The position numbers and the translations under genes were made by a program. Below, piece by piece: positions 4,579-30,406 of a stretch of 64,000 nt of DNA. The notes beneath the pieces were generated by a model, which did not search any database, was not told the DNA's origin, and saw only the letters and a list, made by a program, of their open reading frames with translations. The stretch is from an uncultured Verrucomicrobiae bacterium. GTDB taxonomy: Bacteria; Verrucomicrobiota; Verrucomicrobiia; Limisphaerales; UBA11358. The stretch covers positions 29,838-93,837 of the forward strand of contig CAWHLR010000035.1 in the NCBI GenBank assembly GCA_963830235.1, written 5' to 3'. The first letter of the stretch is position 1; each line of letters begins with the position of its first letter.

Positions 4579-4591
4579 TGTTTGTTTTCAT

Positions 4592-4637
4592 AGGCAGATT
4601 ATAACACTCGGCGCGTCATTGCGCCCAGCATCTGCCT
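4592..4637 (+). terminator. candidate stem-loop downstream of terL
   Basis: AGGCAGAT (4592-4599) pairs with ATCTGCCT (4630-4637) and encloses an inner GGCGC/GCGCC stem. The T-run at 4649-4653 is distal, so this is not a canonical terminator. Confidence 0.35.
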
Positions 4638-4695
4638 TCTCATCCAATCTTTTTAGGCGTTGCGACTGCGACTTGATCCCGAAAAACGCTACGAC

Positions 4696-5732: not shown

Positions 5733-5777
5733 AATCGGGTAAAGGAATGGGGCGGCTTGAACCCGCCCCGGTGTAAA

Positions 5778-10000: not shown

Positions 10001-10136
10001 ACAATCAATTTTCTTTCGGTTTTCAGGTTCCCGTCGAAACACCACTCATCTTATTTTGGGATGATTGATTATCGTAAATGTCTGTTTCCACAATACAAAT
10101 AAAATCATTGGGCGAATTTTGAATTGGAAAAATTTT

Positions 10137-10158
10137 GGGGTTGGGGGGGGCAGGGGGG
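10137..10158 (+). repeat. G-tract cluster (G4, G8, G6) between the divergent AIPR and portal genes
   Basis: GGGGTTGGGGGGGGCAGGGGGG read directly from the sequence. Confidence 0.8.
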
Positions 10159-10308
10159 CGAATTTGGTAAAATACTTCTTTCGATCTTCTTGGATATGTG
10201 GAAACAACCGGCGGGAAAATGAAATAACGTGCAACTAAGTGCATAAGTCGTTGACAATCAATATGTAACACTTGACGAAACGCTGGTTGTGGAATAAATA
10301 GGTCTTAA

Positions 10309-11832: not shown

Positions 11833-11841
11833 AACTGATTT

Positions 11842-12603
11842 ATGGCCCTGAAATACAAATACGCAACGAAGCAGGAAATTCCTGCTGAACATCAATCCCT
11901 TTATGTCGAACGCGACGGCGCTTGGATACTGGACGCCGATGGCATCACAGACAAATCCAAGTTGGATGAATTCCGCACGACCAACGTCGCGCTGATGAAA
12001 GAGCGTGATGACCTCGCCAAGAAGTTTGAAGGCATTGACCCGGATGAAGTCCGCCGGCTCGCCGATGAGAATCGTTCCCTGCGGACGGCAACATTGAGCG
12101 AAGACGCCAAGCGCGAAATGGATGCACAGTTGAAAACCACGAAGGCGGGTTATGAAAAGCAACTTACTGCCGTGACTTCTGAACGCGATGCGCTGCATGG
12201 TCGCCTGACGGCGATTCAGATTGATCAAGCCGTCGTGAATGAAGCAACCAAACGTGGTCTGCGCCCGACGGCGATTCCTGACATTACTTCGCGGGCGCGC
12301 ACGAATTTCAAATTAGTGAACGGCGTTCCTCAAGCTTTCGAGGCGGACGGCCAGACGGCCCGGATGGGCAAGGATGGCGTCACGCCGATGACTTTGGCCG
12401 AATGGGTGGATGCGTTGGTGTCCGACGCACCGCACCTGTTTGAAGCAAATGCTGGTGGCGGTGCCGCCGGCTCCGGCTCCGGTGGGGCTGGCAACCGGTC
12501 CGTGAAAAATCCGTTCCGAAAGGAAACGTTCAATCTCACGGAACAAATGAAAATTCAAAAATCCGATCCACAACTTGCGGCTCGCCTCAAGGCGGCTGCG
12601 TAG
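11842..12603 (+). CDS. capsid scaffolding protein
   Basis: 253 aa, charged and coiled-coil-rich, with a Gly-rich C-terminus. Located between portal and MCP. Confidence 0.6.
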   Translation: MALKYKYATKQEIPAEHQSLYVERDGAWILDADGITDKSKLDEFRTTNVALMKERDDLAKKFEGIDPDEVRRLADENRSLRTATLSEDAKREMDAQLKTTKAGYEKQLTAVTSERDALHGRLTAIQIDQAVVNEATKRGLRPTAIPDITSRARTNFKLVNGVPQAFEADGQTARMGKDGVTPMTLAEWVDALVSDAPHLFEANAGGGAAGSGSGGAGNRSVKNPFRKETFNLTEQMKIQKSDPQLAARLKAAA

Positions 12604-12626
12604 GATCACAAGCACAATTCTAAATT

Positions 12627-13637
12627 ATGGCTAAAACACAATTGGCTGACATCGTTGTTCCGGCGCAGTTCGCGCCGTATGTATTACAGCGCACGGCGGA
12701 GAAATCCGACCTGTTTCAATCCGGCATTGTCGTGCGAACGCCGGACTATGACGAACGCGCTGCGCAAGGCGGCAACCAGGTCAACATGCCGCATTGGAAT
12801 GACCTGACGGGCGACCGCCAGCCACTTTCCGATTCGTCACCGCTCGTGCCGGCGAAGCTCACGGCGGATCAGGACATCGCCCGCATCCATAACGACGGCA
12901 AGGCGTGGTCGTGGAATCACCTGGCAACCTTGGTCTCTGGCGATGATCCGGCGCTGGCGCTGGCCAACTTCATGGCCGATTACTGGAATCGTCAGAACCA
13001 ATACATGCTCATTAGCTCCCTGAAGGGTGTGTTCTCGGCGGCTTCGATGGTCGGCAACCTGTTGGCGATTCACAGTGAAAGTGTCGCCGCGCAAACGGCT
13101 GCGACCCGGCTCAACGGTGCAACCTTCGTGGATGCGACGCAAAAGCTTGGCGACCGTGGCGACCGGCTCGTGGCCGTGGCGATGCACTCGGCAACCGAAG
13201 CCGCGTTGCGGAAACTCGATCTGATTGACTTCATCCCGGACAGCCAGGGTGAAGCGCAAATCCGCACGTTCCAGGGCCGGCGCGTCATCGTGGATGACGG
13301 TTGTCCGTCGCGGGCGGGCACGACCGATGGCTTGGTCTATACAAGCTACCTGTTCGGCCCGGGCGCGTTCGGCATGGGCTTCGACGATCTGAACGGCGCG
13401 CCCGTCGAGGGTGGTTTCGGCACGCAAGGCTGCGAAGCGGCGCGTGACGCTCTCAACAGCGATACCAACCTGATCAACCGCCGCCGGTTCATCCTGCATC
13501 CTCGAGGTGTGAAGTTCACCAGCGCGAGCGTGGCGGGCGCAAACCCGACAAACGCGGAATTGGAAACGGCCGCAAATTGGGTGCGCGTTTGGGAAAACAA
13601 AAACGTCCCCGTCGTGGCGGTCACTCACAACATCTAA
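12627..13637 (+). CDS. major capsid protein (HK97-fold; resembles the N4-gp56/T7-like coat family)
   Basis: 336 aa. N-terminus MAKTQLADIVVPAQFAPYV.... Position after the scaffold fits a coat protein. Confidence 0.75.
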   Translation: MAKTQLADIVVPAQFAPYVLQRTAEKSDLFQSGIVVRTPDYDERAAQGGNQVNMPHWNDLTGDRQPLSDSSPLVPAKLTADQDIARIHNDGKAWSWNHLATLVSGDDPALALANFMADYWNRQNQYMLISSLKGVFSAASMVGNLLAIHSESVAAQTAATRLNGATFVDATQKLGDRGDRLVAVAMHSATEAALRKLDLIDFIPDSQGEAQIRTFQGRRVIVDDGCPSRAGTTDGLVYTSYLFGPGAFGMGFDDLNGAPVEGGFGTQGCEAARDALNSDTNLINRRRFILHPRGVKFTSASVAGANPTNAELETAANWVRVWENKNVPVVAVTHNI

Positions 13638-13688
13638 ACCAAAGGCGTGCCGGTTCGCGCCGGCACGCCACTTTTGAGAAAGAAATTT

Positions 13689-13916
13689 ATGGGCAAACTT
13701 CAACCTCGTAGTTTTGAGCGGATTCGTTCGGGTGAACAAATCCAGTATCCGACATACACCAACGTCGCGGCGGCGGTGGCCGCTGGTGTCACGGCGGCGA
13801 AGTTCCCGCGCCGCATCATTTACCTGTCTGCCGGCGGCACTGGTTCGGTTCCGTGCCTGGCCGTTTCGGACGGCACGAACTGGAAACAAGTCGCCATTGG
13901 CGCAAACGCCATTTAA
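13689..13916 (+). CDS. small head-module protein, hypothetical
   Basis: ATG 13689 inside ORF 13647..13916. 75 aa, co-oriented and directly after the MCP. Confidence 0.45.
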   Translation: MGKLQPRSFERIRSGEQIQYPTYTNVAAAVAAGVTAAKFPRRIIYLSAGGTGSVPCLAVSDGTNWKQVAIGANAI

Positions 13917-13927
13917 CCGCAGCCATC

Positions 13928-14128
13928 ATGGACAAATTGTTTCCCATTATACGGCGGCAGCGGCGTCCTCTGATTGTCGAGGAGTCCGTGCCGGACGGGC
14001 CAACAGCACCGCCTATTCCGATCAAGACCGAGCCGGTTCAATCCGTGATGACAACGCCACCGGTTGAACCGGCGGATGAACCAAAAGCCGACAATGCCAA
14101 AAGCATTTCCACAAGAAAAGCGCGGTAA
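13928..14128 (+). CDS. Pro-rich 66-aa hypothetical protein
   Basis: ATG 13928 inside ORF 13853..14128. Low-complexity sequence. It overlaps the next ORF, so coding status is uncertain. Confidence 0.3.
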   Translation: MDKLFPIIRRQRRPLIVEESVPDGPTAPPIPIKTEPVQSVMTTPPVEPADEPKADNAKSISTRKAR

Positions 14129-15008
14129 CTCACCCTGGACGCCACTGCAACGGCGCACTTGGCTGGCGGAACGTCGCCGCCGCTCGCGGCAAAATCATTT
14201 GCTGCCCGCGCCGGTGCTGGTGGCGGCTTTTCCCGACCTCGCGGTGTGGACGTGGGATTATCCCGACCCGGCTTACTGGTATGCCTATCATCAGCACGCG
14301 GTGGGCGATCCTTTTACTTACGACGACCGTGGCGCTGGGACTGACCGCCAGTATGCGCCGGACGGCGGGCAGTATCCGATGTTCATTGTTGGGTGTGATA
14401 ACGACGGGAACGAGATCACGGGGCGGAGCAATGCGGTTCGTCCTGAAGATGCGCTACCACCTGCCCCTGTCTTAGTTTCGCTGGGAACGGTCGCCGGCGA
14501 TACTACCTGGCGGGCAGTCGCCCCGATAGCTGTGGATGATTGGCAATTTTGCACGACAGATAATGCTTTTGACCCTCAAATTAAAAGTTTTGATCAATGG
14601 GTGTATGAGGCGGACGCGCCGGACACAGATTTCGTCAATATAAATTCCACGACTGCCACCGTCACAGTGGACTTTGCTTATTGCGCTGCCCGCTATCGGG
14701 TCGGGGCAATCTGGTCGTCTTGGACGGGAGTCTTCGATGCAACTGTGATCGCGCCGCCGACACAGTTGGTTTTATCCTCGGATGGCCACGGGCATTTGAC
14801 CTGGACCTGCAACTTCATCGTGGACACGGCCTTCATCATCCAGCATTCGGAAGATGAGGTCAATTGGAGCGATTACGATGCGCAGGACTGCGACAAATTT
14901 TATCGGGACTCCAGCGGATATGCGGGTTTCTACCGACTCGCGATTGGGGATGATGATGGAAACGCCGCGCCGCCCTACTCGAATGCGGTGTATTCGGATG
15001 GTTTGTAA
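14064..15008 (+). CDS. hypothetical structural protein; possible Ig/FN3-like decoration protein; start uncertain
   Basis: 314-aa ORF with a repeated PAPVLV segment and beta-rich W/Y/D composition, in the head module. No motif recognised. Confidence 0.45.
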   Translation: MNRRMNQKPTMPKAFPQEKRGNSPWTPLQRRTWLAERRRRSRQNHLLPAPVLVAAFPDLAVWTWDYPDPAYWYAYHQHAVGDPFTYDDRGAGTDRQYAPDGGQYPMFIVGCDNDGNEITGRSNAVRPEDALPPAPVLVSLGTVAGDTTWRAVAPIAVDDWQFCTTDNAFDPQIKSFDQWVYEADAPDTDFVNINSTTATVTVDFAYCAARYRVGAIWSSWTGVFDATVIAPPTQLVLSSDGHGHLTWTCNFIVDTAFIIQHSEDEVNWSDYDAQDCDKFYRDSSGYAGFYRLAIGDDDGNAAPPYSNAVYSDGL

Positions 15009-15013
15009 TTTTT

Positions 15014-15568
15014 ATGGCGCTCACCTTGATCAAAGAGGACGGGACCGGCAAGGCCGACGCCAACGCATACGCGGACGTGGCCGATGGTGACGCCTACCAC
15101 GCCGGGCATCTGTATGCCACGGCGTGGACCGGCGCGAGCGCGGATCAAAAGGCCGTGGCATTGGTGATGGCGTCGCGGTTGATTGACGCGGAATTTCAAT
15201 TCAACGGCACGCGGACCACGGCCGGACAAAGCCTGCAATGGCCGCGGGCGATGTGCCCCGAGCCGGACAATGTCCATGTGCCGATCTCGGTGCTGTTGCC
15301 GATTCCGTATGAATACGTTGAATATGACAAGGTGCCGAAAGCCGTCGTCCAGGCGACGTGTGAAATGGCGCGGGAACTTTTGATTGCCGACAGGACGGTC
15401 GCCCCAGCGGGTGAAGGCTTGAAATACCAGAACGCCGGCACGACGCAGACGGGTTACGACAAAACCGACCGGCGCCCGGTGCTTTCACAAGTCGCGCAAG
15501 TGATGCTGGCGAAATTTGGATCCCAAATCAGCGCCAAAAGCGGCGCGGTGCGACTGGTGCGGGCGTGA
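15014..15568 (+). CDS. head-tail adaptor (DnaT-like / gp6-like family)
   Basis: 184 aa. N-terminus MALTLIKEDGTGKADANAYADVADGDAYH... fits the DnaT_2-type phage adaptor pattern. It is the last co-oriented gene of the module. Confidence 0.55.
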   Translation: MALTLIKEDGTGKADANAYADVADGDAYHAGHLYATAWTGASADQKAVALVMASRLIDAEFQFNGTRTTAGQSLQWPRAMCPEPDNVHVPISVLLPIPYEYVEYDKVPKAVVQATCEMARELLIADRTVAPAGEGLKYQNAGTTQTGYDKTDRRPVLSQVAQVMLAKFGSQISAKSGAVRLVRA

Positions 15569-15632
15569 AAATGAATATCGGTATGGATCAGTTTAAAAAT
15601 CCTAAACGCTACGATGCGAGCGGAACGGCTCG

Positions 15633-16097
15633 TTATTTTTTTGCTGCTGCTGCCGCTTTCTTGCGGTTTTCAATGCTTCCGTCAATAAAAGTAACCGACG
15701 GAAGCATAAATGGGGGCATGGGGCCTCTTCCTGTGTTAAATAATATTAGCTCTCGTGCGGCTCCAAATAAAACAGCAGGCCCATTACATGTCACCATGTC
15801 AATTATTGCAGACTCCTCAACGCTCTGGTGGACTTCAAAAAAACCTAAAAGTTCTGCATCAATCACATAGGGGCAAAAAGTGCTGCCCTCGCTGGGTCGA
15901 ACCATCAATCTTAGAACAACTTTCCAAAGTCTATTATTATCCTCGTTTTTAGCTGTCTCAACTTAAGTTGTAATGTTCGAGTGGCTTCCTGCCATCAACT
16001 TAACCAGATCATCCTGGGACGCAACATCGGGAATGGTGGCCTTAAAAGAAAAATTGGTAACGAAAGATTGCTTAAGAATTAGAGGTGACAACTGCAT
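15633..16097 (-). pseudogene. SecB-like chaperone of a TAC module, interrupted by an in-frame TAA (15963-15965)
   Basis: Not in the ORF track. ATG 16097 is preceded by AAGGAG and overlaps the antitoxin stop. By-eye alignment to E. coli SecB: NFSFKATIPDV vs DISFEAPNAPHV, WKVVLRLMVRP vs YEVVLRVTVTA, and CNGPAVLFGAARELI..GRGPMPPFMLPSVTF vs CPNILFPYARECI..SRGTFPQLNLAPVNF. Confidence 0.7.
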
Positions 16098-16578
16098 AAT
16101 TCATCTCCTTTTTAATCTGTTTGACATTGTGATATTTTGCGCCCGAAAACAGACCGGCGTAAATTTCAATGCCCCGGGGTATGTTCCATGGAATTTGGTG
16201 TATCCACTCACAGCCAACGTTGTTTGGCGTTAGATGAATATGCGCACGAAAATTCAACGCGAATGCCAACTTAACAATGGTTTCCATGGTGCAATTTCCG
16301 CCCCTAAAAACTTTTGTTAGAAATTGTTTTGAAACATCCGCCCGCTCCGCAAATTGGGTCTGATTTAAGCCGCGATTATCCATTGCCTGCCAGAGTTCAT
16401 CAGAAAAAGTTTCTTTAAAATAGGCCGTTTGATACGGAAGTGTCTGTCGCGTCTTATTCAGATTTTCATCAAGTTTTATGCTCCGTTCAACGGCTGGCAG
16501 CGGCTCCAGTCCGAGGTTGGCTGTGGTAATATAGCTCTCTGCGCTCCTGGGCGCGTTCAATGTCTTTTTTGTGGTCAT
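16072..16578 (-). CDS. XRE/HigA-like antitoxin with a C-terminal extension
   Basis: HTH segment GLNQTQFAERADVSKQFLTKVFRGG, followed by a ~60-aa tail. It lies between the toxin and the SecB-like gene. The N-terminal boundary is uncertain because the ORF overlaps the toxin by 92 nt. Confidence 0.7.
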   Translation of the reverse strand: MTTKKTLNAPRSAESYITTANLGLEPLPAVERSIKLDENLNKTRQTLPYQTAYFKETFSDELWQAMDNRGLNQTQFAERADVSKQFLTKVFRGGNCTMETIVKLAFALNFRAHIHLTPNNVGCEWIHQIPWNIPRGIEIYAGLFSGAKYHNVKQIKKEMNYAVVTSNS

Positions 16579-16909
16579 GGCGATTTTGGGCTATAAATCC
16601 GTGAGTGCAAACGACTATGGAATTATTATTCTTGTCAAAAAACCAAAAAACCCTCGCACCGCCTTTTGCGCAAAATTCCCAAAGCGGTTTGGCCTGTTTT
16701 CCGTGTAGAGGTTTTGTTTTTTGTCCATTTGGCACTATCCCGTGTTTCTTTGCTCTATCAAATAATGCAATTAATTGGTTATAATCTTCAGCACGAGTCA
16801 CGTCGATCTCTTCCAAAAACGATTCCACATCATACTTCGGCTGGTCGCAATCCATGAACAGCAATCTGATTGCGTTTCCACCGTCACCTGTATATTCGAC
16901 CAGTTTCAC
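16487..16909 (-). CDS. HigB/Gp49-like (RelE superfamily) toxin
   Basis: RVFWFFDKNNNSIVVCTHGFIAQNRHDHKKDIERAQERRELYY fits the Gp49/HigB pattern. Confidence 0.65.
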   Translation of the reverse strand: MKLVEYTGDGGNAIRLLFMDCDQPKYDVESFLEEIDVTRAEDYNQLIALFDRAKKHGIVPNGQKTKPLHGKQAKPLWEFCAKGGARVFWFFDKNNNSIVVCTHGFIAQNRHDHKKDIERAQERRELYYHSQPRTGAAASR

Positions 16910-17062: not shown

Positions 17063-17689
17063 TCACGCCAACGGCCAAAGTTTTTCTTTTGGCAACCGGC
17101 GCTCAATCACGCTGCTTGACACTGCAAATTTCCGGGAAATCGGTTTCGCCAGATATTGCATGTGCGCCTCGTCTTGAAGCTGGCTGCGCGGCATCCCGCA
17201 TTGCTCGGCGATTTTGATGGCGGCTTCCAATTCCTGACGCAACGCAACGGGCGGGACCAAAAATCGTCCGGCAAATTCATTCGCATGATATTCAAGAAAA
17301 CTATACTCCTTCTCCGGCATATCGCGCATGAATGCAATCCACTCTTCTAACGATCCTTGGGGTATCTGGCTGAAAACCGCCTTGTGCAAAACGAAGTGGC
17401 CCAACTCGTGCGCGATGCTGTATCGCAATCGGTTGGTGTAGCGTTCGTCCATGTATTGATTCTGGTCAACCACGATGGTTCGCCAGTCGCCTAGCAGCAG
17501 CGCATCAACGTCGGCTTCCTCTTTGAGTTTTGAAATTGGCCGAATCTCCAGCCCCAGCTCAAATTCAACCACCGACAACACATCTATGGGAATGACATTT
17601 GACGGCCAAACGTGTGCTCTAAATTCATCCGCCTGCCGCCAAATATCTTGCGGGGCGATGAATGGAGCCTTGAAATTTTGAGGTTCCAT
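17063..17689 (-). CDS. ImmA/IrrE-family zinc metallopeptidase
   Basis: HEXXH motif (IAHELGHFVLH). Located immediately downstream of an XRE HTH gene. Confidence 0.85.
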   Translation of the reverse strand: MEPQNFKAPFIAPQDIWRQADEFRAHVWPSNVIPIDVLSVVEFELGLEIRPISKLKEEADVDALLLGDWRTIVVDQNQYMDERYTNRLRYSIAHELGHFVLHKAVFSQIPQGSLEEWIAFMRDMPEKEYSFLEYHANEFAGRFLVPPVALRQELEAAIKIAEQCGMPRSQLQDEAHMQYLAKPISRKFAVSSSVIERRLPKEKLWPLA

Positions 17690-17698
17690 TCGCCCTTT

Positions 17699-18076
17699 TC
17701 AGCCTTCCTTGATCTTTTGCAAAACTTTCCGAAGTTCGTCCTCGGTGGGTTTTTGGCCGCGCAACGTGCGGAAGAATGCGGGCAATTTTTTTACCAATTC
17801 GGCATCGTCCATCAAATCCTGCGGAATCATGCCACGGTCGGCGGCGGCCAAATCAAATAACTGATACCATTCATCGCTTCCCTCTTTCAACCCAAGCGCC
17901 TCCGCATATCTGGTGAGAATCAGGCGGTCTTGCGGCGGAATCATGCCGCCCCGTTCCATCCGGCTGATGTTGCCCGGATCGGCTCCGGCGGCTTCACAGA
18001 AGGCCCGCAGCGTAATTCGCTTTTCAGTCCTAAGTGCCTTGAAATAAGAGGCAAATGTTGTTTTCGTTTCATTCAT
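17699..18076 (-). CDS. XRE-family HTH transcriptional regulator
   Basis: ITLRAFCEAAGADPGNISRMERGG is a helix-turn-helix segment. Paired with ImmA. Confidence 0.8.
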   Translation of the reverse strand: MNETKTTFASYFKALRTEKRITLRAFCEAAGADPGNISRMERGGMIPPQDRLILTRYAEALGLKEGSDEWYQLFDLAAADRGMIPQDLMDDAELVKKLPAFFRTLRGQKPTEDELRKVLQKIKEG

Positions 18077-18085: not shown

Positions 18086-18115
18086 TGTTGTAGTTGTTGA
18101 ACAACAACTACAACA
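18086..18115. promoter_or_regulatory. perfect 30-bp palindrome; candidate operator of the XRE/ImmA operon
   Basis: TGTTGTAGTTGTTGAACAACAACTACAACA lies a few nt upstream of the AGGAG Shine-Dalgarno sequence and the ATG of 17699..18076. Confidence 0.6.
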
Positions 18116-18161: not shown

Positions 18162-21006
18162 TTATTCCCAATCTGGGTTCTTGAATCCGAGCGTTTTGGC
18201 GTTTTCCGAGACGGCGCGCTTGGTCTGGTCTTTTGCGCCGTTGGGGAAAGTGGCCTGAATCTCGACGCTGACTTTTACCTCCGCGTTGGGGTCGGCAACG
18301 AGGACGGCGATGATTTCCTCGGCGATTTGAACGAGGCGCATTTTCGCGGTGGAGGCGTTGACCGTGACGTTGCCGTGGAATGATTGCGGCTTGGGCGTGC
18401 CGATGCCTTCCATGCCGGGAAGCTGGCCGGGTGTGCCGGTGGTTCCCTTGCCGGGCGGCGTGGCTGTCGGCAATTCCGGCGTGCCGCCGCCGGTGGCTGG
18501 CTTGGCCGGTGGCGGCAGGAGGCTGGCCGCGTAGCTGGTGGCAGCCTGCGGCTCGATGAGCAGCAGCGTGTCGTCGAGTTGCACGTTGGCGTCGCCGAAT
18601 TTGAATCCGTCAAACTTGCCTTCGTGTTCGCCGTAGGCGGTGCCGAAAAAGTCGCGCGTGCCTGCGCCTTTGACGATGGCTTGCTCCAGCACGCCGCGAT
18701 TTTTCAGGCGCGGCAAATAAAGATAGCGCAGCGTATCTTCCCAAAAAGCCATCGCCGACGCGGCGGGCTTGTCTTCTTTCCAATAAAGTTCCTTGAGCCG
18801 GTCGCGCAAGATGGATGGGCGACCAGGTGGCGATGACCAATTCTTGATCCAGGCAGACGCGCTCGATTTCCGCGCCAAGCGCCGCGCCGCTGGTGTTCAG
18901 CGGGAAAGACTCGACGGTGGCTTGCGTGGCCGTGGATGATGCCTGCGACGGGCAGAGCAGCCAGCGATAACATTCGCGGGCCGCTTTCGGCACGACTTCT
19001 TCGGCGGTTTTCAGTTCCTTCTCGGCCTGTTTCTTTTGGACGAGGTCGATGTTCAAGCGGCTGGCCTCGACATCATCCACGATGGATTTCCACGCCAGCG
19101 CCGTCGCGGACACAATCACGTAACTCGTGCCAGCGACGCCTGATCCGGCGCGAGAAAAATCAGCCGGTTGCCGCGATAGCGCGGTTTGGTGCCGTTGCTG
19201 CGCGTGAACGTCCAGCACTTCATCGAACGCCAGCCGCGGTTCCTGCCCGGCTGAATAAAATTGCTCCGGCGGCAGACATACCAGCCGCAAGCCGGTGTCA
19301 TCGGGCACATCGCCGTGCGGGGTGAAAATGTGGACGCCATCAAAGAATGACGCGCCGGCGGTGAGTTTCTCGCAACGCCTCGGCGATTCGGCCGCGCACA
19401 TCATTCGCGTCGTCGAACCGGCGTCTTCCGGTCCTCCATTTCGCGGCGGAGATTGGCGCGGGTGTCGAACCAGAAGCGCGTCGTGTCCTGCGCCTTGTCG
19501 CCGGATGGTGTTCAGGTAATGCAGCCGGTCGGCGAGCCGGTTCAGCGCGTCGGAATAGGTCGACGAAGCCTGCCCCGGCTGGAAGCAGCCCAGCAGGACG
19601 CGGGCGCGTTCCAGGCCGCGTGTGCCGCGGCTTTGTGCGCCACGGACGGACGGAGCGGTGCCAAGGAAAATGGTGCGGGCGACACGGCGCGCGGCTTGCG
19701 ACTGCGCCGAATCGCGGCTCTTTGGTTTCCAGTTCGGTGGTCTCGGCGCGCTCGCCGTCAATGTCGCCTTCAATGACGGCATCCCAGCCGGTCCGCAAAT
19801 AGTAGGTCAGTTCGTTGCGCGTACTGCCGTCATAAAGCGGCAGGCTGCCGGGCAGAATCATCAAGTCCTTGTTGTCGTCCTTCCACAGGCGATAGATGAC
19901 TTTCGCCATGAGTTTCAGCACGCCGCGAGTGCGCTGGAATCCATCGATGCGTCGTCCAATCTTCATAGAGCCGGTCAAAAACCTCCGGGTGGATCGGATA
20001 AGCCTGCATCAGCCGGTCAAAGTAGCGGGCCTCCTGCGTTTCGGACGGCAGTTTCGCGCCTTCGGCAACGTAGGCGTCGGCAAATGCGCGGCAAACCGCG
20101 TCGCGGTCTTTTCATCGCGGATCGGTTCAAACAGGCGGCGGCGCACGATCTCAAACGCTTCCTCGGTGGCGACGGGTTTCCAAAGCGCCTGCACGCGGCC
20201 AAAAGTCTTTTCCAGCGCGCGCAACGCCGCGACGCCTCGTTGACTGCCGGCCTCAACATCGGATTCCGGCAATGAGCCGAGCACCATGGCGTTCGGCACC
20301 AGCTTCACCGCTTCGGTGAGCGCCTGGACGAATGACAGATTGCTGTCGTAGGTGCCGCCGCTGAGTGACTGGCCATTCGAGAATTGCCGGATGTAGGCGA
20401 CCAATTCATCCACCAGCACGACGCACGGCGCATAGACTTTCCAGCAGCGTCCGCAAAACGTCCTTGCCGGGTGACGTGCCGTTGGCGTCGGCCTCTTTGA
20501 CCAGCGCGAAGGCTTCTTCGCCGCCAAGTTGCCATGCGAGTTCGCCCCAAAGCGTGTGGATGGCTTGCTTGCCATGCTTCCACGGCTGGCCGGGGGCATG
20601 GGCAGTGCCGTCCAGCACGGCGACTCGCGCCTTGGGCACGTCCATGAGTCCCGCCTGATCCAGCAGAGCCGGAATGCCGGGCAAGTCTTTCAAGCGCGCA
20701 TTTGCGCGTGGCGAGGTGATAGACCGCCAGCATGGTGTGCGTCTTGCCGCCGCCGAATGCGGTTTGCAGTTGGATGACTGGATCGCCGCCTTGCCGTTAA
20801 GCGCGCTGGGCGACTGACGTAAGCAGCAGGCGCATGCCCTCGGTGATGAACGTGCGCTCGAAAAATGCCGCCGCGTCCTGATATTCCCGCGTGGCTTTGC
20901 CGGTGTGAACCGCCGTGATGTCGGCGGCAAACTCGGACTGTTGAAACGTGCCTTCCAGAACGTCCGCGTGCGGGACGGCGATTTCTCTCCAAGGTTTCAG
21001 GCTCAT
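18162..21006 (-). pseudogene. DUF499 (BrxC/PglY-like) P-loop ATPase, disrupted by at least 13 frame changes plus an in-frame TAA
   Basis: Recognisable segments are spread over all three frames across six ORF-track fragments: [30 protein letters not shown], Walker [35 protein letters not shown], and LAWKSIVDD. Confidence 0.8.
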
Positions 21007-23941
21007 AAAGATTATTCTCTATTTCGGCAATCATGTCGAACCCGGCAAGTCTTGTTCGGCGGGTTTCGGTGCGGCTGGCTGCTGCGGATTCGATGCCGGT
21101 CCAACTGGTGATGAGTTCGTTATAGGCGCGGGCGTCCTCGGCTTGGCCGAGACGTTCGCAAAGCGTGTAGAGGCGATAGGCAAGCTGGCGCACGGCCTCG
21201 GCCTTGCCGCCGAGCGCGGCCAGCAACGCGCCGGACGCGGAATCGCCGCCTTGCCTGAAGGCGCGGATGAGCTGGTGCAGCGCTTCCCAGACGGGCATGC
21301 GCTTGTCGGTGCTCGGGTCCCAATCGGTCGGATATTCCGACCATTTGAGCAGGCGGACTTTACCGCCGCCGCTTTGGAGGACACCGGCTTCTTTCACGCC
21401 GTCAACACTCGTGCCTTTGGCGCGTGCAAGTGTGTCTGCATCGCCAAATGCGCCTTCATTCCAGCCGTGTTGCTCAAACCAATGCAGGCAAAATTGCGTG
21501 TCGGCGTCGAAATCATCTTCGCCGAGGAAACGGTTGATGAGTTGAAGTGCGGTGCGGACACTCATTGGCGTTCCATCGGCTTCAAGCACTGCGGCGTATT
21601 TGGAAAATACCGCCATGCCAGGGCCGATGATGGCCTGCGACAAATCCACCGGCGCGACTGGAGAATGTTCGCCGCCCGCGCCTTTGGTCATTTCGTCGAG
21701 CGCCTCGGGCAGGACTCCGTTCAACTCGTGAATGAACTCGCGCCGCGAAACGGTTGCGGCATCCGCTGCGCGCTTACGACACACGAGAACGATACTGGAT
21801 GCGAGCGCATTGTTACCCATGCCTATCATTCTGAACTCTTGCTCGCTGCGCAGAGGCCATGTTCCGACAATCGCAAAGCCTGCTCGCAAGACAGCAGTGA
21901 GGAATGTCTCCCAACCAGTCGAAGATGTGCCTGCATCGTCATTCGTTTCTGATTGTTTGAAGGCATAGTAGATTGTAACTGGCCCCTCCGGGTGTGCTAG
22001 TTCGACGAGGTTATGGATCACCTTCGTCATGCCATCGAGGAAAAAGGCTTCAGCTTTTTCCTTGGTTCCGTGTCGGTAGGGTGTTGCAACCAGTTCTTCA
22101 GTTTTTGGAACAGCTATCGTGGCAAGGGTTGTTGGGAAAAATGAGCGCAACGCTCGCCGAAGCCAAATATAGAAAAAATCCGATAGGTCGGCGTAGCCGA
22201 TGTTATCGTAGTATGGCGGGTCGGTTGAGATAAACTTGAGTCGAGAAACAGTTTGGGTTTGGGCGTCTGCTTGCGTGGCGAAACCGGCTGCTGCCGGTGA
22301 AAGTTTTTCGATGCAGTCAGCCACATATTCTGCTGCTGGTGCAAATCCACCAACGGTATCAGCAAGAATAGCCGCTTCTGGATAATCCCAAGACATAGGG
22401 ATAGCCTGTTTCCCAAAAAGGTTCATTACCTTCTGGTTGCTCGGCACCCAGCGGGTGACGGAATTTGAGAAATCGGCGCAGCGATTAACCACGAATGCCA
22501 GATATAAGCTCACAGCTTCACCATAGGCAGTAGCGCCACTACCTCCAGCATCGAGACCTTTCTGGTCATCTTTCATTCCGGCGGCAATTGCATTAGATCG
22601 GACGTAATCCCTCGCCTCGGCAACGAGGTCGCTAAAGGTTGTCAACGCTACCAACTGTCGCGCTGTGAAAAGGTCGCCGAAAGTGTTAAGTCCGTAGTTC
22701 GGCGTCTTGAAATCTCGTGGATTGTCAGGTAAAGCCATGTCTGGCTTCCATGTTGGCTTTGCTGTGGCCGCAATCTTTTCCGCTTCCGGTGTCGGTGAAA
22801 GATAAATTCGCCCTCGCGTTCCCTCGGCAACAATAGCCATCAGTTTTTGTCCCATGCGGCCAGCCTTGCCCTCCGAACGAATGTGGTCATAGCCGATTGG
22901 TGCATCTGACATAAGGCAGCGAAAGGCTTTTCGCTTTCCTGCTGTTGTGCCTTCTTCCGCTTCTGGCGGTGGCGTTCCAATTTTCACTTTGAAGCTGTAA
23001 TGGCTTCCATCAATGATAGGCTGAACGTAAGACTCTTTGCCCTCTTTGCTGGCAAGGATAAAATTTGAAATAAGTGGCACACTTATCTGCGAGAAAGCTG
23101 GGCTGGGGCTATTGACCGTTCGCGCCCAAAGCCAAGCGATAACTGGAAGCTTTTGACCAACGAGAGGTTTTAGATCGGGACGCTCGCGAGCCATATCGCC
23201 GGTTATCTCCACTGGTGGATAAAGGTGGCCGATTCTTTTGATCGCTTTTTTACGCATCCATACTCCGCAGCGACGAACATCCTCCGCAAGTCCAGTTGCT
23301 CCGGGCCATTCCTGCGCGATAGATAAATGACCGCCGCGTTTGTCGGTCGGGAGCGGTCCGACGGGTGCGCGCCCGGCGAATTTGGGTGGAATTTCAATCA
23401 TTGCTTTGTTAAGCATGACTGCAACGGGGTTCAAATCCGTGGCGTATGATTCCAAGCCGAGTCGTTGCGCCTCAAGTGGGATGGCTCCCCCGCCGGCAAA
23501 TGGGTCGTGAAAAGCTGGTAGCTTTTCAGGATCAAATAACTCTTTGGCCTGTGGATGATCTTTGTTGAGTTCGCACACTTCCCGCCATGAGCGGCGAATC
23601 TCGGCGCGTGCGCGCGATAGAACTTCCTCATTCGTGCTGTTCTCCCACTTCACAAGGTCTTCGATGATTGTGAATAGGCGTTTTCTTTCAGCCGCCGCCT
23701 CCTTTTTGTTTTTACCGTATTTGAAACCTCTGCCAATGTTCGTGCCTGGGTCGTTGACCAACTGTGCGAAGATTACAGCCCGCGCTGCCGCGAGTGGACG
23801 CCGCGCCCACCAAAGATGTATTCCCCGAGGGTGCGCGCCGATGCCTGGCATTTTCTCGTAAGCGCACGCCTCGTTAATCGCATCCAATGGCAGCGCGACT
23901 TCAATGAGCTTGCGCGGGGATTTGATGGGATGGGCGAACAT
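20690..23941 (-). CDS. DUF1156-type DNA methyltransferase; true C-terminus probably near 21030-21090
   Basis: [15 protein letters not shown]...[20 protein letters not shown] is the DUF1156 signature. [10 protein letters not shown] is the DPPY catalytic motif. The last ~105 codons of the ORF are an out-of-frame read across the DUF499 start. Confidence 0.8.
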
Positions 23942-23947
23942 CAGGAA

Positions 23948-24613
23948 TTATGGTTGAGCCGGATTTGCTGGAGGTTGGTCCAACGAACCAGGGTAGGCGT
24001 GTTCGATCTTGCCGATCAGAAAATCGGCGAAGCTGCCAAGCACTTGCAGGTTGTTCGGGTTAAACGTCGGTTGGTGGGCCCGATTGCGCTTCAGGTTTTT
24101 CAGCGCAGCCCACGTTATGAAATCAGCGGGCAGTTCGCCTTTGCTGTAACCGGGGAAAATCCTTTTAATTTCAGGGAGATAGCCAATGGCATGAAGCGGC
24201 GTGGTGAAATGGCCTTGGTTGCCGAAGTGAAGCCACCCTTGAAAGCTATTCCCATCCCAGTGCAGGGCAAAGAAGTCCTCGAAATTGTGGTAGGAGAAAA
24301 GGAAATCAGGAATGCCGGCAGTTTTGAGCGCGTAATGGTCGGCGCAATGATGGTCATTTCGGTGATAAAGATCAAAATCCGCCCAGATTTGGATGGAGGC
24401 CTTTTTATTGGCCTTCCGGGTTTGGTTGTAGCGCCTTTTCAGTTTTCCGAAGGCTCCGTCCTTCACAATCACTTTTTCCGGCACGATGAAGCGCAATGGA
24501 GTCTCGAAGGTGCCATCCGCTAGTGGCTGCTTATCGAGAAAGCTTTGTAAACGCTGTAAATAGGCCCACTCGGACTCTCCTTCGCAGACGATGATGTAGC
24601 GGATACAAGGCAT
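23948..24613 (-). CDS. RloB-like protein (AbiLii-like)
   Basis: N-terminus YIIVCEGESEWAYL fits the RloB CEGE motif. ATG 24613 preferred over TTG 24625. Located directly downstream of the AAA ATPase. Confidence 0.65.
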   Translation of the reverse strand: MPCIRYIIVCEGESEWAYLQRLQSFLDKQPLADGTFETPLRFIVPEKVIVKDGAFGKLKRRYNQTRKANKKASIQIWADFDLYHRNDHHCADHYALKTAGIPDFLFSYHNFEDFFALHWDGNSFQGWLHFGNQGHFTTPLHAIGYLPEIKRIFPGYSKGELPADFITWAALKNLKRNRAHQPTFNPNNLQVLGSFADFLIGKIEHAYPGSLDQPPANPAQP

Positions 24614-24621
24614 GATTTTGT

Positions 24622-25909
24622 TCAAAGTGCCGGATGGGGGATGCCGGAATAGTATCCGGCAAGATATTGCTTTCGGAAATTAGTTACGTTGCGGATATCT
24701 TCGCCATCTTTTTTGGCATCGACCAGACGGCGAATCAGGGTGCCGTTCGCTTTCGTTTTCCTGACAAGGGCAATCTCAGAAAGACGTAGAATTGAGTCGT
24801 CCAGGATGTCGGTGTTGTGCGTGGTGACGATCAACTGCGCGCCCTTCGGGTTATGGCGGCGTTTTTTGAACAGCAACACGATTTCCCGCATGAGCAAGGA
24901 ATGGAGAGAGCTTTCGAGTTCATCCACGATAAGCACGCCGCCGGTTTTGAGAGTGTGCAGGATCAGGCCAACAAGGCCGGCCAGGCGCTGGGTGCCGGCG
25001 GACTCGTTTTTGATGAAATCGAGCAGAGCGGGATTGCCGGCGACATCCTGATGGGTCGCGGTGATTTGCACGGCATGTTTGATTTTCGTGACGGGATTGA
25101 ACTTGGTGATGCCAATCGGCTCCGGCTCGTTAGGAGCCAGCTCCCGTTGGAAGATATCAATGGCGGCGATATCAATATCCAGTCGGCGGACGACATCCGT
25201 GATCTCCCGAAGGGCGGCCTTCTCATCCCCGCCCAGTATCGAAGCGAGGATCTCGACAGAAACCGGGAGCGGAATCGGCTGTTCGTTTGTGTAATACTTC
25301 AGGCTTTCCGTGAAATAGACGAAGGCGTTGCGCAGGTCTTGATTAAGTCCGGAGTAGCCGTGACCAATGCGGTGGAGAAATAGTTTGGTTTGCCGCCCCT
25401 CACCGTCGGAGCACTCCACACGCAAAATTTCGGAAAGTTTTAGCTCCGAATAGGTGGCGGAAAGGACCTGGGGGGAAAACTCGGCTTTCAGGTTCTGGAT
25501 CTTGTAGATCGGCTTCCCGTTTTTCAGCAAGGCCTCTTCCAGAATTTCCATCGCGTTAAAACCAACCCGGTATTCAAAGCGCTCACCGCCCATGAAAAAC
25601 TCCACCACGAAGGTGGTATGCGAAAACTTGGGGTTGAGCAAGTTGGGCTCATAGTAGTTGGCCAATGGACCGCCCCCGCGGAGCAACAGTTTGAGCATCC
25701 CAAATGCCTTGAGGATGTTGGTCTTGCCGGAGGCGTTGGCACCAAAAAACGCCATGCAGGGAACAAGCCGTTGTTTGGTAGCGGTTTCGAGGAATGGCAT
25801 GATTTCCTGTTCCTTGGTAACCATTGGGAGCCTTCCCTTCGCCGTAAGTAAAATCCAGCTTGAGTTCCAGTATGGACCGGAAGTTTTGAATGAAGAAGGA
25901 AGATAACAT
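24622..25909 (-). CDS. AAA_21-type ATPase (RloA/AbiLi-like), with one frameshift near 25815
   Basis: The true N-terminus FIQNFRSILELKLDF lies in ORF 25649..25909. Walker A GANASGKTN, LIVDELESSLH and VTTHN lie in ORF 24622..25824. Confidence 0.8.
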
Positions 25910-25997
25910 AAATATATCGTGTTTTTTATGATCTTCTGTTCATTTTACGGTCAAGTCAAGCTTGTATGAGCAGTTTTTCTGTTTATTTTGCAAAAAG

Positions 25998-28900
25998 TCA
26001 AGGGCTGGTAGCGCGTTCAAGCAACGCATTGAGTTCGTAGTTGACCGATGACACGCCCCAGCCGGGTTCGGTATCGAAGGGGTTGCTGACATAAAACGGG
26101 CCTTCCACGGCATCGCCTTCGCCGACAAGCACGATGGCGAGCAAAAATTTATCGGACTGGTTCAAGGCGTAGAGCATTTCGTTCCGCGTGATCGTCACCG
26201 TGCCCGCGCCTTTGACGCGGCCTTTGACTTCAATGTGCCGGGTTTCCGGCTGTTTGCCCTCCACGGCCTGCGGGTAGGAGGTAATATCCCAGCCGCATTT
26301 TTGCGCTGAAACATCCACGACGCGGCAGCCGCGTGATTCTTCAACGCGGCGAACGGCGTCCATCGCCAGCTTTTCAATGCGGGCGCGGGCGGCGGGGTCG
26401 GCAGAAAACATGGCTGCCGTCGCATCGGCTGGCGGCGTATCGCCGCGCAATTTGCGGAGCAAGCCGGCGGGAATAACCAGTGCGCCGCTCAACACGACCG
26501 GCGTGGCCGATGTGACGTGCCGCATGGATTGGAGTTCGCGCTTGCGGCTTTCCAGCCGGGATTCGAGGTCGGCAATGGTGCGCCGGACGTTATCCAGATT
26601 GGGGCCGATTTCTTTACCGGCGGCTTTATCGTCCGAAAGTTTGATGTAGCGGTCGGACCAGAAATTTATTTCCGTCGTCAAACGCTCGTGGACTGCCGCG
26701 AGCGTTTTGTCCACATGGGCGATGCGGCGTCCGGCAATTTCGCCGAAGTGTTCGGGAACGAGCGTGGACGCGGCGAGCGCCAGAGCGCGTTGCTCAAGTC
26801 CGGCGGTCAACCACGGCGCGGCAAGTGTTCCGGCGAGCAACGGGCGCTCGGCAACGGCGAGCGGTTCAAGGTCAAGGTGTGGCGCCCAACCAGCAAAGGT
26901 GGCGCTGCCGTCCGGCAGGACGCGGACGAATTGCAGGCGTTTGGAAATGACCTGGCCGTCGCCGGATTTCACTTCATGCGTGAGCAGGAACAGAAGCGAC
27001 GGCGCTTCGCCGTCGTCGGACGGGTCAACGAGGATGCTGCCTTGCCGCAGTAAATTGGCGTGCTGTTCCAACAACACGTCACTCAACGCGAGCATGACCG
27101 GATGGCCGGGATGAATCATGCTGGCAAACGCGAGTCCGGCGCGTTCCAACGGGCGGACGGCATCCTTGGTGAAACAAACCCGTTCGTAGCGTTTCAAAAC
27201 CGGCGCGAGATCGCGGCGGTTGCGCCCGGTGATGAGACGGTCACGTTCGCGCAACACGGCGGGAACATGGGCGATTTCAAAGCGATTAAGTTCGCGCGGG
27301 TAAATTGAACCGCCCAGCGATTCAAACCCTTTCATAAAAAAGGAGCGGACGAAATAGGGCTGCAACCGGCGGGCCTCGGCCTTTTCCATTTCCTCCTTCA
27401 CGGCAAAGAGCCGTTCCGGCCCAAGCGTTTCCTGGGCAAGCGCGTTGCGGTCCAGCAACGCGAGCAAGTTCTGGCGGTCAAAATTGTGGTCAATCTTCTG
27501 GCGGAGTTTTGCCCGCACGTCCTCGCCGGTCGCCGTAACGGATGGCTTCAATCAGCAATTCTTTGAGGCTCTTGCCCTCGAACACTTCGCCAAGAATGTC
27601 GAACACCCGGCCTTTCAACGCCTCGCTTTCGACGCGGATTTTTTCGAGCAGGCGAAAATACACGTCGCCTTCGCGCGTTTCCTTGGCGACGAGATTCCAG
27701 AGATGGCAAACCTCCTGTTGGCCGATACGGTGGATGCGCCCGAACCGCTGTTCAAGGCGGTTGGGATTCCACGGCAAATCGTAATTCACCATTAGGTTTG
27801 CGCACTGCAAATTGACGCCTTCACCGGCGGCATCGGTGGCAACGAGCACGCGGATTTCGGGGTCGGAACGGAAAAGCGCCTGCGCTTCCAGGCGTTTGTC
27901 GCGATGCGTGCCGCCGTGAATGGTGACGATGGCATCGTGACTGCCCAGCACACCGGCGATTTTCTCATGGAGATAATTGAGCGTGTCGCGGTGTTCGCTG
28001 AAAATGATAATTTTGCGCAGACGGCCTCCGGCGTCGTGCATGTGTTCGTCACGCTGGAGGATTCGGGAAAGTTCTTCCCATTTGCGATCCTGACCGGACG
28101 CGACAACTTCGCGGGCCTGATTCTCCAGCCGAATCAACGTGTCAATTTCATCCTCCAGTTCGGCGATGGTTTTGGCCGTGGTCGCCTGATCCACGAGGGA
28201 TTCTTCCAACTGCTCCTGCTCGTTGGCCGTCAAGTCATCATCATCATCCGGCACCTCCGGGAGTTCCTGGCTGGCGGCAAGGCCGTCGCCCGAAAAATCG
28301 GACGGTGGCGGCGCGGGTGCCAGCGTCTCGGCGAGAATCTGCCCGCCGCGATTGGCGATGTTTTCTTCCCGCAGCCGGCGCTGGAGCCGTTCGCGGCGGC
28401 GTTTCAAGGATTGGAAAATCGCCTCCGGGCTGGACGCGAGCCGGCGCTGGAGCGATGTCAGCGCAAAGCCGACTGAACCTTTGCGCTGGCCGCCAAGCTG
28501 GTCGGCCTTGCCCATTTCGGTTTTGACGTAATGCGTGACAGCTTCGTAAAGCGCGGCTTCAATGTCGGAGAGTTTGTAATTGACGGTGTAGGCGCGGCGT
28601 TCGGGAAACAGGGGCGTGCCGTCGAATTTCACCAATTCCTCTTTGACCATGCGCCGCATGAGGTCGCTGGTGTCCACTTTATGCACGCCGTCGCGGAATT
28701 TTCCATAAAAGCGGTCGGAGTCGAGAAGCGACAGGAACAACTGGAAATCTTCCTCTTTGCCGTTGTGGGGCGTGGCGGTCATCAGCAGCAAATGGCGGGT
28801 GTGTGCGCCGAGTTTTTCCGCCAGTTTGAACCGCCCGGTTTTCTCCAGCTTGCTGCCGAAGAAATGCGCGGCGAGTTTGTGCGCCTCGTCGAACACGACG

Positions 28901-29574
28901 AGATCCCAGCCGGCGGCGCAAAGTTTTTCCTGAAGGTCATCGTTGCGCGCCATCTGGTCGAGCCGGACGATGAGATGGTCAATGTCTTCAAAGGGATTGC
29001 CGCTGGGAGTGGCAGCTTCCAAGTCTTTGGTGAAGACGCGAAATTCGAGGCCGAATTTCTCAAACATTTCATCGCGCCACTGCTCGACCAGGCTGCCGGG
29101 GGCGACGATGACGATGCGGCGGGCATCGGCGCGCATGATGAGTTCGCGGATGTAGAGGCCCGCCATGATGGTCTTGCCCGCGCCGGGGTCGTCCGCCAGG
29201 ACGAACCGCAACGGCTGGCGCGGCAGCATGGATTCATAGACCGCCGTGATCTGGTGCGGCAACGCTTCCACGTTGGACGTGTGAACGGCCATCATGGGAT
29301 CGAACAGAAAGGCGAGGTCAATGCGCTTGGCCTCGACCACCAGCTTGAAAGTTTCGCCGTCGCCGTCGAATGACCACGGGCGTTCGGTGGTCGCAACGGT
29401 GAGGTTCGGTTCGTCGGCGCGATTGATGAGGCGTTCCTTGAGCGTGCCGTCGGGAGTTTTGTAAAGCACCTGCACCGTTCCCTCGGCGATGGGCACAACC
29501 GCCACCACGCTGCCGATGACGGCAGGCTCAAGTCCCGTAAGCGGGACGCCCGGTTTGATGTCTTCAATTTTCAT
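25998..29574 (-). CDS. SNF2-family helicase fused to a DUF3883-like C-terminal domain, with one frameshift near 27527
   Basis: [22 protein letters not shown] and [11 protein letters not shown] lie in ORF 27490..29574. ORF 25998..27551 continues the protein (AIRYGD / GEDVRAKL) and ends with the DUF3883-like RHIEVKGR...ITRNE. Confidence 0.85.
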
Positions 29575-30118: not shown

Positions 30119-30350
30119 CCGCTGTCCACGCGAAAAGATTTGCGACGGGAATCGGATTGCCGGTTGGTGCCGCTCGGCCTATGCTTTCCAACAAATGAAC
30201 ATCGCGCCTAAACCTGTCTATCTTTTTCTATCATCCGAAAAGGATTTCGCTGCATTTTGCCGCATCTTAACGAAAACGCGAAAACGCATTGATACCATTG
30301 ATTCTATTGGCTTCCCTGTGTTTTCAATGGTTTCGCCAAATGTGCCATAA

Positions 30351-30377
30351 CGAGTTCGAATCTCACCGCCCCGACCA
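30351..30377 (+). other. tRNA 3'-end-like fragment (T-loop plus acceptor strand plus CCA); possible att remnant
   Basis: CGAGTTCGAATCTCACCGCCCCGACCA contains GTTCGAATC and ends in ACCA. No matching 5' acceptor strand (CGGGGCG) lies ~70 nt upstream, so it is not a complete tRNA. Confidence 0.35.
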
Positions 30378-30406
30378 TTTCTCAATTTTTGATCGCCGAT
30401 TGCCGC

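Follow-up and report, generated by a model that had tools for sequence, protein, structure and literature searches.

The DNA analysed here, referred to below as the window, is a stretch of 64,000 nucleotides from an uncultured Verrucomicrobiae bacterium (assembly GCA_963830235.1, contig CAWHLR010000035.1, positions 29,838 to 93,837), and on the minus strand, between positions 18162 and 29574, it carries a helicase/methylase/ATPase triad that the PADLOC profiles place in the defence system Hma (best E = 0). The open reading frames (ORFs) of the window were mapped and scanned with the Pfam and PADLOC profiles, and motifs were located on the translations. Read along the minus strand, the gene order is hmaA, a pair made of an AbiL-like ATPase and an RloB-like partner, hmaB and hmaC, where 29574 is the first base of the hmaA ATG and 18162 the last base of the hmaC stop codon. 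The hma genes are co-oriented in the order A-B-C, as in the PADLOC gene rule for Hma, and two embedded genes separate hmaA from hmaB, where that rule admits up to three between neighbours. The features of the locus are listed below; related loci are designated by L and a number.

27490-29574, minus strand: 5' ORF of hmaA, 694 amino acids; Pfam SNF2-rel_dom, Helicase_C and ResIII; PADLOC HmaA with E = 0, profile positions 2-676 of 1176.
27524-27528, minus strand: hmaA frameshift, +1 (an extra G, at ~27526), from DNA alignments and tblastn.
25998-27521, minus strand: 3' part of hmaA, inside a 517-amino acid ORF (25998-27551); Pfam NOV_C 5.4e-20; PADLOC HmaA profile positions 677-1171, 3.9e-216.
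25910-25997, minus strand: AT-rich spacer of 88 bp with 30% guanine plus cytosine (GC), from the hmaA stop to the true abiLi start.
25817-25909, minus strand: codons 1-31 of abiLi (MLSSFFIQNFRSILELKLDFTYGEGKAPNGY), an N-terminus conserved in L002, L008 and L018.
24622-25824, minus strand: main ORF of abiLi, 400 amino acids, an AAA_21-type ABC ATPase; Pfam AAA_21 1.2e-28; PADLOC AbiLi 7.5e-59.
23948-24625, minus strand: abiLii, 225 amino acids, a putative RloB-family partner, apparently intact; PADLOC AbiLii 5.4e-9, profile positions 28-74 of 170.
20690-23941, minus strand: hmaB ORF as read, 1083 amino acids; Pfam DUF1156 1.1e-27; PADLOC HmaB with E = 0, profile positions 3-959 of 967.
21070-21077, minus strand: hmaB frameshift, +1 at ~21076, from alignment with L006, L030 and L009 and three-frame translation.
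18162-21006, minus strand: hmaC pseudogene, a DUF499 AAA+ ATPase of ~943 codons once repaired and with no HEPN fusion, from PADLOC, Pfam and DNA alignments.

We conclude that the locus is probably a degenerate Hma system with an AbiL-like cassette between hmaA and hmaB, carried on a phage-derived island, at its far end. Hma (helicase, methylase, ATPase) was defined together with PADLOC in 2021 by Payne et al. from 1,638 operons in 26 phyla, often accompanied by Septu (PMC8565338); the gene neighbourhood had first been noticed in 2013 (PMC3710099), and a 2026 reclassification treats the triad as a type-1 BREX-related (BR) system (PMC12839542). The gene content and coordinates given in the initial annotation were right, the family matches are far beyond chance, and its description of the triad as a restriction-modification (R-M) or BREX-like defence module is borne out by the Pfam and PADLOC matches and by the existence of a named system. 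On the other hand, its suggestion of novelty falls, since it had itself named assignment to an already characterised system as the outcome that would speak against it, and PADLOC assigned these genes to Hma. Its statement that the mechanism had not been worked out experimentally is also outdated: Liu et al. reported in 2024 that hmaA of Halomonas meridiana alone shielded Escherichia coli from T4, and that this protection required both the helicase and the PD-(D/E)xK nickase activities (PMC11232893). What lies in the window is thus a known system with a known architecture in a broken copy, and its arrangement is ordinary rather than new.

The heaviest damage was found in hmaC. Five overlapping ORF fragments cover positions 102-940 of the PADLOC HmaC profile, Pfam DUF499 is matched on two of them, and no intact DUF499 HmaC is encoded. 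Lesions were located by DNA alignment with L081, L082, L006, L030 and L009 and by the frame changes seen in tblastn. A premature TAA (20799-20797) stands at codon 70, and could itself be a +1/-1 pair. Single-base insertions occur at 20695, 20434, 19948, 19699, 19646, 19505, 19425, 19370, 19239, 19213, 19120, 19106 and 18811, two bases are inserted at 19263-19262, and one base is missing at both 20115/20114 and 19627/19626. These are 16 private frameshifting indels (13 of +1, one of +2 and two of -1), compared with 0-1 in the relatives, and together with the stop at codon 70 they uphold the earlier view of the ATPase component as destroyed.

In hmaA both of the domains first annotated as a fusion, an SNF2 helicase and a DUF3883-like nuclease, are present, but they no longer form a single ORF, owing to the +1 insertion at ~27526. 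The Snf2/SF2 core retains motifs I, II and VI (motif I, DDPGAGKT, at 29193-29170; motif II, FDEAHK, at 28893-28876; a further motif at 27750-27718). The 5' ORF follows the native sequence to about residue 683 and then adds 11 out-of-frame residues before its stop at 27490, and the NOV_C (formerly DUF3883) domain, in which the PD-(D/E)xK nuclease motifs GWDITS (26294-26277) and HIEVKG (26237-26220) were recognised, does not lie on the same polypeptide as the helicase. At the lesion the window reads GACC[G]GCGAGGAC, compared with GACC-GCGACGAC in L081, L082 and L006, and tblastn switches frame between residues 666 and 668 of the HmaA of L001. This extra G is the sole private indel of hmaA in the DNA alignments with relatives. 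Otherwise the 694-residue ORF is 99% identical to the intact 1198-residue protein P0002, and hmaA deviates from its relatives at 0 of 666 conserved columns. By descent it is therefore an hmaA gene, though a damaged one. Among relatives of hmaA the nearest is L081, with 99% amino acid identity over the 694-residue N-terminal ORF; this locus is a compact, intact hmaABC with the same flanks, a tRNA-like fragment on one side and a head-tail adaptor gene on the other.

An hmaA allele of 696 amino acids in L083, an independent metagenome contig, was considered as a possible instance of the same truncation and rejected: it carries a separate lesion, an in-frame TAG about 35 nucleotides downstream of the frameshift site of the window. 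This allele (L083, ~4160, near the contig end) is 98% identical at the amino acid level and is interrupted at nearly the same domain boundary.

The least damaged of the hma genes is hmaB. Residues 1 to ~955 form a native DUF1156 N6-adenine methyltransferase, with the DUF1156 domain at the N-terminus, motif I at 23506-23477, the DPPY motif IV at 22225-22202 and, between the two, a variable segment (residues ~380-570) which is presumed to be the target-recognition domain. A single high-scoring segment pair joins it to the HmaB of L001 (residues 2-956, 79% identity), and it deviates at 4 of 435 conserved columns, which equals the median relative. The methylase had been described as largely intact, and this is true of its motifs and its body of ~955 codons, but the native stop has been lost through the +1 insertion at ~21076, where the window reads GCAGCAGCC[A]GCCGC and the relatives read GCCGCCGCC-GCC/ACC. 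The insertion sits 14 codons before the natural end of the gene and throws the native end (LPGST-TGA, 21033-21031) out of frame, and translation reads through to 20690, over the hmaC start, adding ~130 aberrant residues; three indels instead of one at this junction are a possible alternative reading. The native stop would lie 24 nucleotides from the hmaC ATG. In a collection of 5.8 billion proteins, the relatives of HmaB among the matches listed are 944-1043 amino acids long, compared with 1083 here.

The embedded pair was found where the initial annotation had placed an RloA/RloB-like (AbiL-like) pair, and the AT-rich region 25910-25997 reported upstream of it is a true spacer; the frameshift in its first gene had been missed. 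The conserved N-terminus of abiLi, MLSSFFIQNFRSILEL..., begins at 25909, out of frame with the 400-residue ORF, and within 25801-25816 the window has 16 nucleotides where L002 has 15; by this +1 insertion abiLi has lost its first beta-strand. The main ORF carries Walker A (GANASGKT, 25743-25720), the signature SAGTQRL (25002-24982) and Walker B (LIVDELESSLH, 24933-24901), so that, codons 1-31 being out of frame, the ATPase of an AbiL/RloAB pair is otherwise recognisable. Weaker PADLOC matches were obtained to AriA (1.2e-29) and, with the C-terminal part only, to HEC-01A (5e-18). Its partner abiLii scores 26.7 bits with Pfam RloB, under the 31.5-bit cut-off, and carries the motifs CEGESE (24589-24569) and DFD (24385-24365), the spacing of which resembles that of TOPRIM catalytic residues. 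It deviates at 0 of 71 conserved columns and has 266 homologues, 65-84% identical among the matches listed, many of which are precomputed as PF13707. An AlphaFold model of abiLii (predicted local distance difference test 76.2) compared by Foldseek with the PDB gave a best E of 0.12, and did not confirm a TOPRIM fold; neither abiLi nor abiLii had a match when the PDB was searched by sequence, and an exact look-up of the 400-residue abiLi ORF returned no record.

The spacer contains, at 25967-25987, the sequence ATAAACA-N7-TGCTCAT, a degenerate version of a 7-bp inverted repeat (ATAAACA-N7-TGTTTAT) with TTGAC after it. L002, L061 and L008 preserve this repeat in front of their abiLi genes; L018 has an imperfect left arm, and in the window it is the right arm that has degenerated. 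Since another embedded cassette precedes the pair in L008, it is the AbiL cassette and not hmaA that the repeat accompanies, and it is a candidate operator or promoter that may move with the cassette. A promoter scan yielded 6 sites where 4.9 were expected, and on the coding strand of the abiLi spacer no sigma-70 match was significant.

To place the locus among its relatives we used a scan of one genome per species, which yielded 80 loci whose HmaB proteins share 48-86% identity. Practically all of them keep the order hmaA-hmaB-hmaC, and inserts longer than 500 bp lie between hmaA and hmaB in 35 of 67 loci and between hmaB and hmaC in 27 of 70. The nested second system had been considered unusual; instead, nesting is the trait of Hma with the best documentation: genes are inserted in 66.5% of Hma loci, AAA_21 ATPase pairs among them (PMC11232893), and 62.7% of 1,485 Hma systems carry embedded genes, most commonly ABC ATPases with TOPRIM, NERD or PIN partners (Payne et al. 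2024, bioRxiv 10.1101/2024.01.29.577857). Full-length orthologues of the nested pair occupy the same junction in L002, L061, L008 and L018, with 55-72% amino acid identity. In L008 a second embedded cassette of ~2.2 kb (3385-5775) lies between hmaA and the AbiL-like pair, and therefore embedded systems can stack at the hmaA/hmaB junction; this cassette may be Septu-like, judging by ATPase and HNH-like motifs read by eye in its translation.

The comparison with L006 and L030 revealed a mosaic, in which the nucleotide identity of the hmaA and hmaC arms to those of Verrucomicrobiae relatives (L006, L030 and L081) is ~90%. Identity is ~87-92% over hmaC and the 3' end of hmaB (18162 to ~21600), falls to ~70% over the rest of hmaB, is lost over the AbiL pair, which cannot be aligned, and returns to ~90-94% over hmaA, up to 29670. 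The GC content follows the same partition, with 0.51-0.54 in the nested pair and divergent block and 0.59-0.62 in the hmaA and hmaC arms. The nested pair is thus of lower GC, as first annotated, but this property is not confined to it: the low-GC block (~22000-25997) also takes in about the 5' two-thirds of hmaB, and the divergent block contains both motif I and the variable segment before DPPY. This indicates that the middle block (~21600-26000) came from a different lineage, probably through cassette exchange by recombination. Because the divergent, low-GC block spans both, the nested pair would have been swapped along with the presumed specificity-determining part of hmaB, and not simply inserted.

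Among known systems the closest is the Hma of H. meridiana SCSIO 43005, which has the same three families in the same order on a single strand, with an HmaA that likewise joins Snf2 and NOV_C. Both loci embed a second defence system between hmaA and hmaB, Septu in H. meridiana and the AbiL-like pair here, and an AAA_21 ATPase with an unannotated partner recurs in Halomonas Hma, but between hmaB and hmaC. The difference lies in the state of the genes, as in the window hmaC is multiply frameshifted, hmaA is split and the hmaB stop is read through. With type-1 BR and type-3 BREX (PMC12839542) the locus shares a three-part core: a BrxC-like AAA+ ATPase, an N6-methyltransferase into which a target-recognition domain is inserted, and an Snf2 helicase. 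Fusion of the helicase to a nuclease is characteristic of type-1 BR, and PADLOC BrxHI and BrxHII also match the helicase here (1e-91 and 1e-76). By contrast with BREX, PglZ, BrxA, BrxB and BrxL are missing, the locus being filled by five genes, and DUF1156 replaces the N-terminal module of the BREX methylase. No PglZ model match was found among the ten ORFs scanned, and PglX matched hmaB with just E = 0.0025.

The embedded pair resembles AbiL (Lactococcus AbiLi/AbiLii), RloA/RloB and HEC-01 in combining an AAA_21-type ABC ATPase with a small partner, here a putative RloB-family protein with E...DxD, and in being embedded in an R-M-like locus, in the same orientation and with its own upstream region. 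It differs from them in that the AbiLii match is partial, the RloB match sub-threshold and the 5' end of the ATPase frameshifted, and the partner gene matches neither HEC-01B in PADLOC, so that the pair is not HEC-01, nor a solved TOPRIM structure. PARIS (AriA/AriB) and the Gabija/OLD-family ATPase-TOPRIM systems follow the same general principle, in which a small nuclease effector is paired with an ABC ATPase as sensor, but the partner is not DUF4435/AriB, and nothing points to a common trigger or target.

The surroundings bear on the origin of the locus, and the following features of the window were recorded.

17699-18076 and 17063-17689, minus strand: genes for an XRE-type helix-turn-helix (HTH) protein and for an ImmA/IrrE M78 peptidase, respectively, from Pfam; PADLOC capP 8.4e-14 and capH 6e-4.
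30352-30377, plus strand: a tRNA 3'-end-like fragment (GAGTTCGAATCTCACCGCCCCGACCA) that ends in CCA, single copy in the window.
2551-3183, TerS; 3069-4439, partial TerL; 10309-11832, portal; scaffold; 12627-13637, major head protein; 15014-15568, head-tail adaptor: phage head genes.

To the right of the tRNA-like fragment there are housekeeping genes (30-64 kb). ARAGORN found no tRNA gene in the window, and the region around the fragment (30188-30385) shares 91% identity with the corresponding flank of L081; the fragment is probably an att remnant at the right edge of an integrated island. On the other side, 1193-15870 is a truncated head module, like that of a phage or a capsid-forming satellite, in which the TerL ORF covers just part of its family profile and no tail genes were seen. 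The Hma locus is cargo at the end of this degraded, phage-derived integrated element. In IMG/VR three viral contigs carry hmaABC, none of them with the head genes of the window; direct or inverted repeats bounding the locus amounted only to short, chance-level matches, and an Rfam search of 15-31 kb at E <= 1 returned no matches. Directly downstream of hmaC, outside Hma, the CapH/CapP-like pair of XRE-type and peptidase genes is preceded by a perfect 14-bp palindrome (18086-18115), and could regulate defence genes nearby in response to DNA damage or serve the element as its immunity module. Two further observations were made to the left of the locus: an AIPR/AbiU-like abortive-infection gene (8123-10045, minus strand; Pfam AIPR 6e-32, PADLOC AbiU 1e-29) lies between the terminase and portal genes, and a Gp49/HigB-like toxin gene with an HTH (HigA-like) antitoxin gene (16072-16909, minus strand), of low GC (~42%), lies between the phage remnant and Hma.

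According to the literature, in an intact locus of this kind HmaB, as an N6-adenine methylase, would mark the host DNA, HmaC, a BrxC-like AAA+ ATPase with winged HTH and RRM sensor domains, would assemble or license a scanning complex, and HmaA, an Snf2 translocase with a PD-(D/E)xK nickase, would cut unmodified invader DNA; the proposal for type-1 BR divides the work in the same way, the methylase marking self DNA, the DUF499 ATPase scanning and recognising, and the helicase-nuclease restricting (PMC12839542). The embedded ATPase/nuclease-like pair would provide an independent second layer of defence with its own upstream region. Judged by its genes, the locus most likely no longer restricts anything, and its residual activity may be methylation at most.

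Several lines of evidence indicate that the damage is local and real. The lesions are confined to the Hma locus and are not window-wide: RecG, a nucleoside transporter, an aminotransferase, ABC_tran_2, ThyA, the phage portal and the major head protein all cover their families at full length. Private codon changes amount to 33 nonsynonymous (N) and 56 synonymous (S) in hmaC compared with 6 N and 50 S in hmaA (N/S 0.59 and 0.12; Fisher p = 5e-4), and the hmaC genes of three relatives have 31 N and 151 S pooled; the constraint on hmaC is relaxed in the window. A codon-usage frame plot across the window was too noisy for the detection of frameshifts. We favour real decay over an artefact with fair confidence.

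Some observations weigh against this conclusion. The locus has 19 private frameshifting indels, of which 17 are insertions and 2 deletions, and inspection of their contexts showed that only about 3 extend an identical neighbouring base; 11 of them cluster within ~600 bp, at 19106-19699. Bacterial pseudogenes usually show a deletion bias, the opposite of what is seen here. In HmaC freed of its indels, deviations are seen in 1 of 184 strongly conserved columns and in 8 of 500 that are moderately conserved, a conservation no worse than that of working relatives, and the excess of private hmaC changes (33 S and 25 N) is confined to alignment columns 600-1800, the central 1.2 kb, which is also where the relatives are most alike. 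Because the repaired HmaC is conserved and the private changes are limited to this central part, the N/S ratio loses force as a sign of a long-dead pseudogene. Uniform neutral decay would not give such a pattern; an old pseudogene core with flanks refreshed by recombination is possible, as is a locally poor consensus, and a sliding comparison with the nearest relatives along hmaC gave no clear sign of a chimera. An error in the local assembly or consensus is possible, especially for the three single-base lesions in hmaA, abiLi and hmaB. Moreover, the roles assigned to the proteins are borrowed from comparative genomics and from one heterologous assay, in which HmaA worked alone and overexpression of HmaB produced no measurable change in T4 infectivity (PMC11232893).

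Among the alternatives to the degenerate Hma system, the first is that of an orphan methylase, in which restriction was lost (hmaC, then hmaA) and hmaB was kept by selection as a functional N6-adenine methyltransferase, serving for example an epigenetic purpose or as the residual protective arm of an addictive R-M-like module. The uninterrupted frame of the hmaB body with its intact motif I and DPPY, and its median number of deviating conserved columns, agree with this, and the order of damage (hmaC far more than hmaA, and hmaB only in its tail) fits the R-M logic by which restriction can be safely lost before the methylase. However, the last 14 native residues are lost, including a semi-conserved C-terminus of the L-P-G-F type, and ~130 aberrant ones added; the closest hmaB relative, 83% identical in amino acids among the matches listed, is too distant for a test of purifying selection on the branch; methylation by HmaB has never been demonstrated (PMC11232893); and abiLi is broken as well, which speaks for general decay. 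With the native stop of hmaB lost and breaks in hmaA and abiLi as well, the evidence speaks for decay of the whole locus rather than selective retention of the methylase, and a selected orphan methylase, though plausible, seems less likely than not.

The second alternative is that consensus errors introduced the frameshifts where the assembly is locally poor, for instance in a gap closed with long reads or in a strain-variable segment that was wrongly polished, and that the real locus is an intact, working Hma with an AbiL-like pair. The insertion bias, the clustering and the rarity of homopolymer extensions speak for it, as do the conserved residues of the repaired HmaC and the private substitutions that co-cluster with the indels in columns 600-1800; frameshifts also occur in some relatives from long-read metagenome-assembled genomes (L006, L065 and L048), and, but for one base each, hmaA, hmaB and abiLii seem to have been maintained by selection. 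Against this, no gene is split in the other ~34 kb, which is housekeeping sequence, or among the phage head genes, so that the errors would have to be confined to the locus, and the excess central substitutions of hmaC have an N/S of ~0.76, compared with the roughly 2.5-3 that we estimate for random errors. We therefore consider an intact locus hidden by consensus error rather unlikely.

The lesions could also be real and their order informative, in that loss of HmaC disarms restriction or HmaC is dispensable, with HmaA and HmaB useful without it. This is based on the ~17 lesions of hmaC compared with one in hmaA, which still shows purifying selection, and none in the body of hmaB, and it fits the defence provided by HmaA alone and the ~20% of hmaA loci without hmaC. 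In addition, the clustered indels, with their strong insertion bias and little resemblance to slippage, could have arisen by a mutational process aimed at the locus instead of by ordinary decay, for example if breaks were repaired again and again with the untemplated addition of single bases. We consider this reading unlikely. Finally, that the embedded pair is a recent insertion which disrupted a working Hma operon and caused its decay is very improbable, since, although the pair and its spacer have a lower GC than the hmaA and hmaC arms and the closest hmaA relative (L081) lacks the pair, the same pair, upstream motif and site are found in four relatives with full-length hma matches, the pair sits between genes and not inside one, 96.7% of embedded genes are oriented like the host system and coexist with intact systems (bioRxiv 10.1101/2024.01.29.577857), and the extent of the low-GC block, which takes in most of hmaB, suggests that a whole cassette was replaced rather than simply inserted.

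Returning to the degenerate Hma system as the preferred explanation, its insertion-biased, clustered lesions are the sole unexplained feature. For annotation, the locus should be labelled as a degenerate Hma, or type-1 BR, system with an embedded AbiL-like cassette, and not as a new system. If the lesions were confirmed by the reads, the order of gene loss would give weak natural support to the division between protection by HmaB and restriction by HmaC and HmaA. The locus adds, together with the four orthologous ones, one more example of the embedding and exchange of cassettes at the hmaA/hmaB junction, by which the presumed target-recognition segment of HmaB may be swapped.

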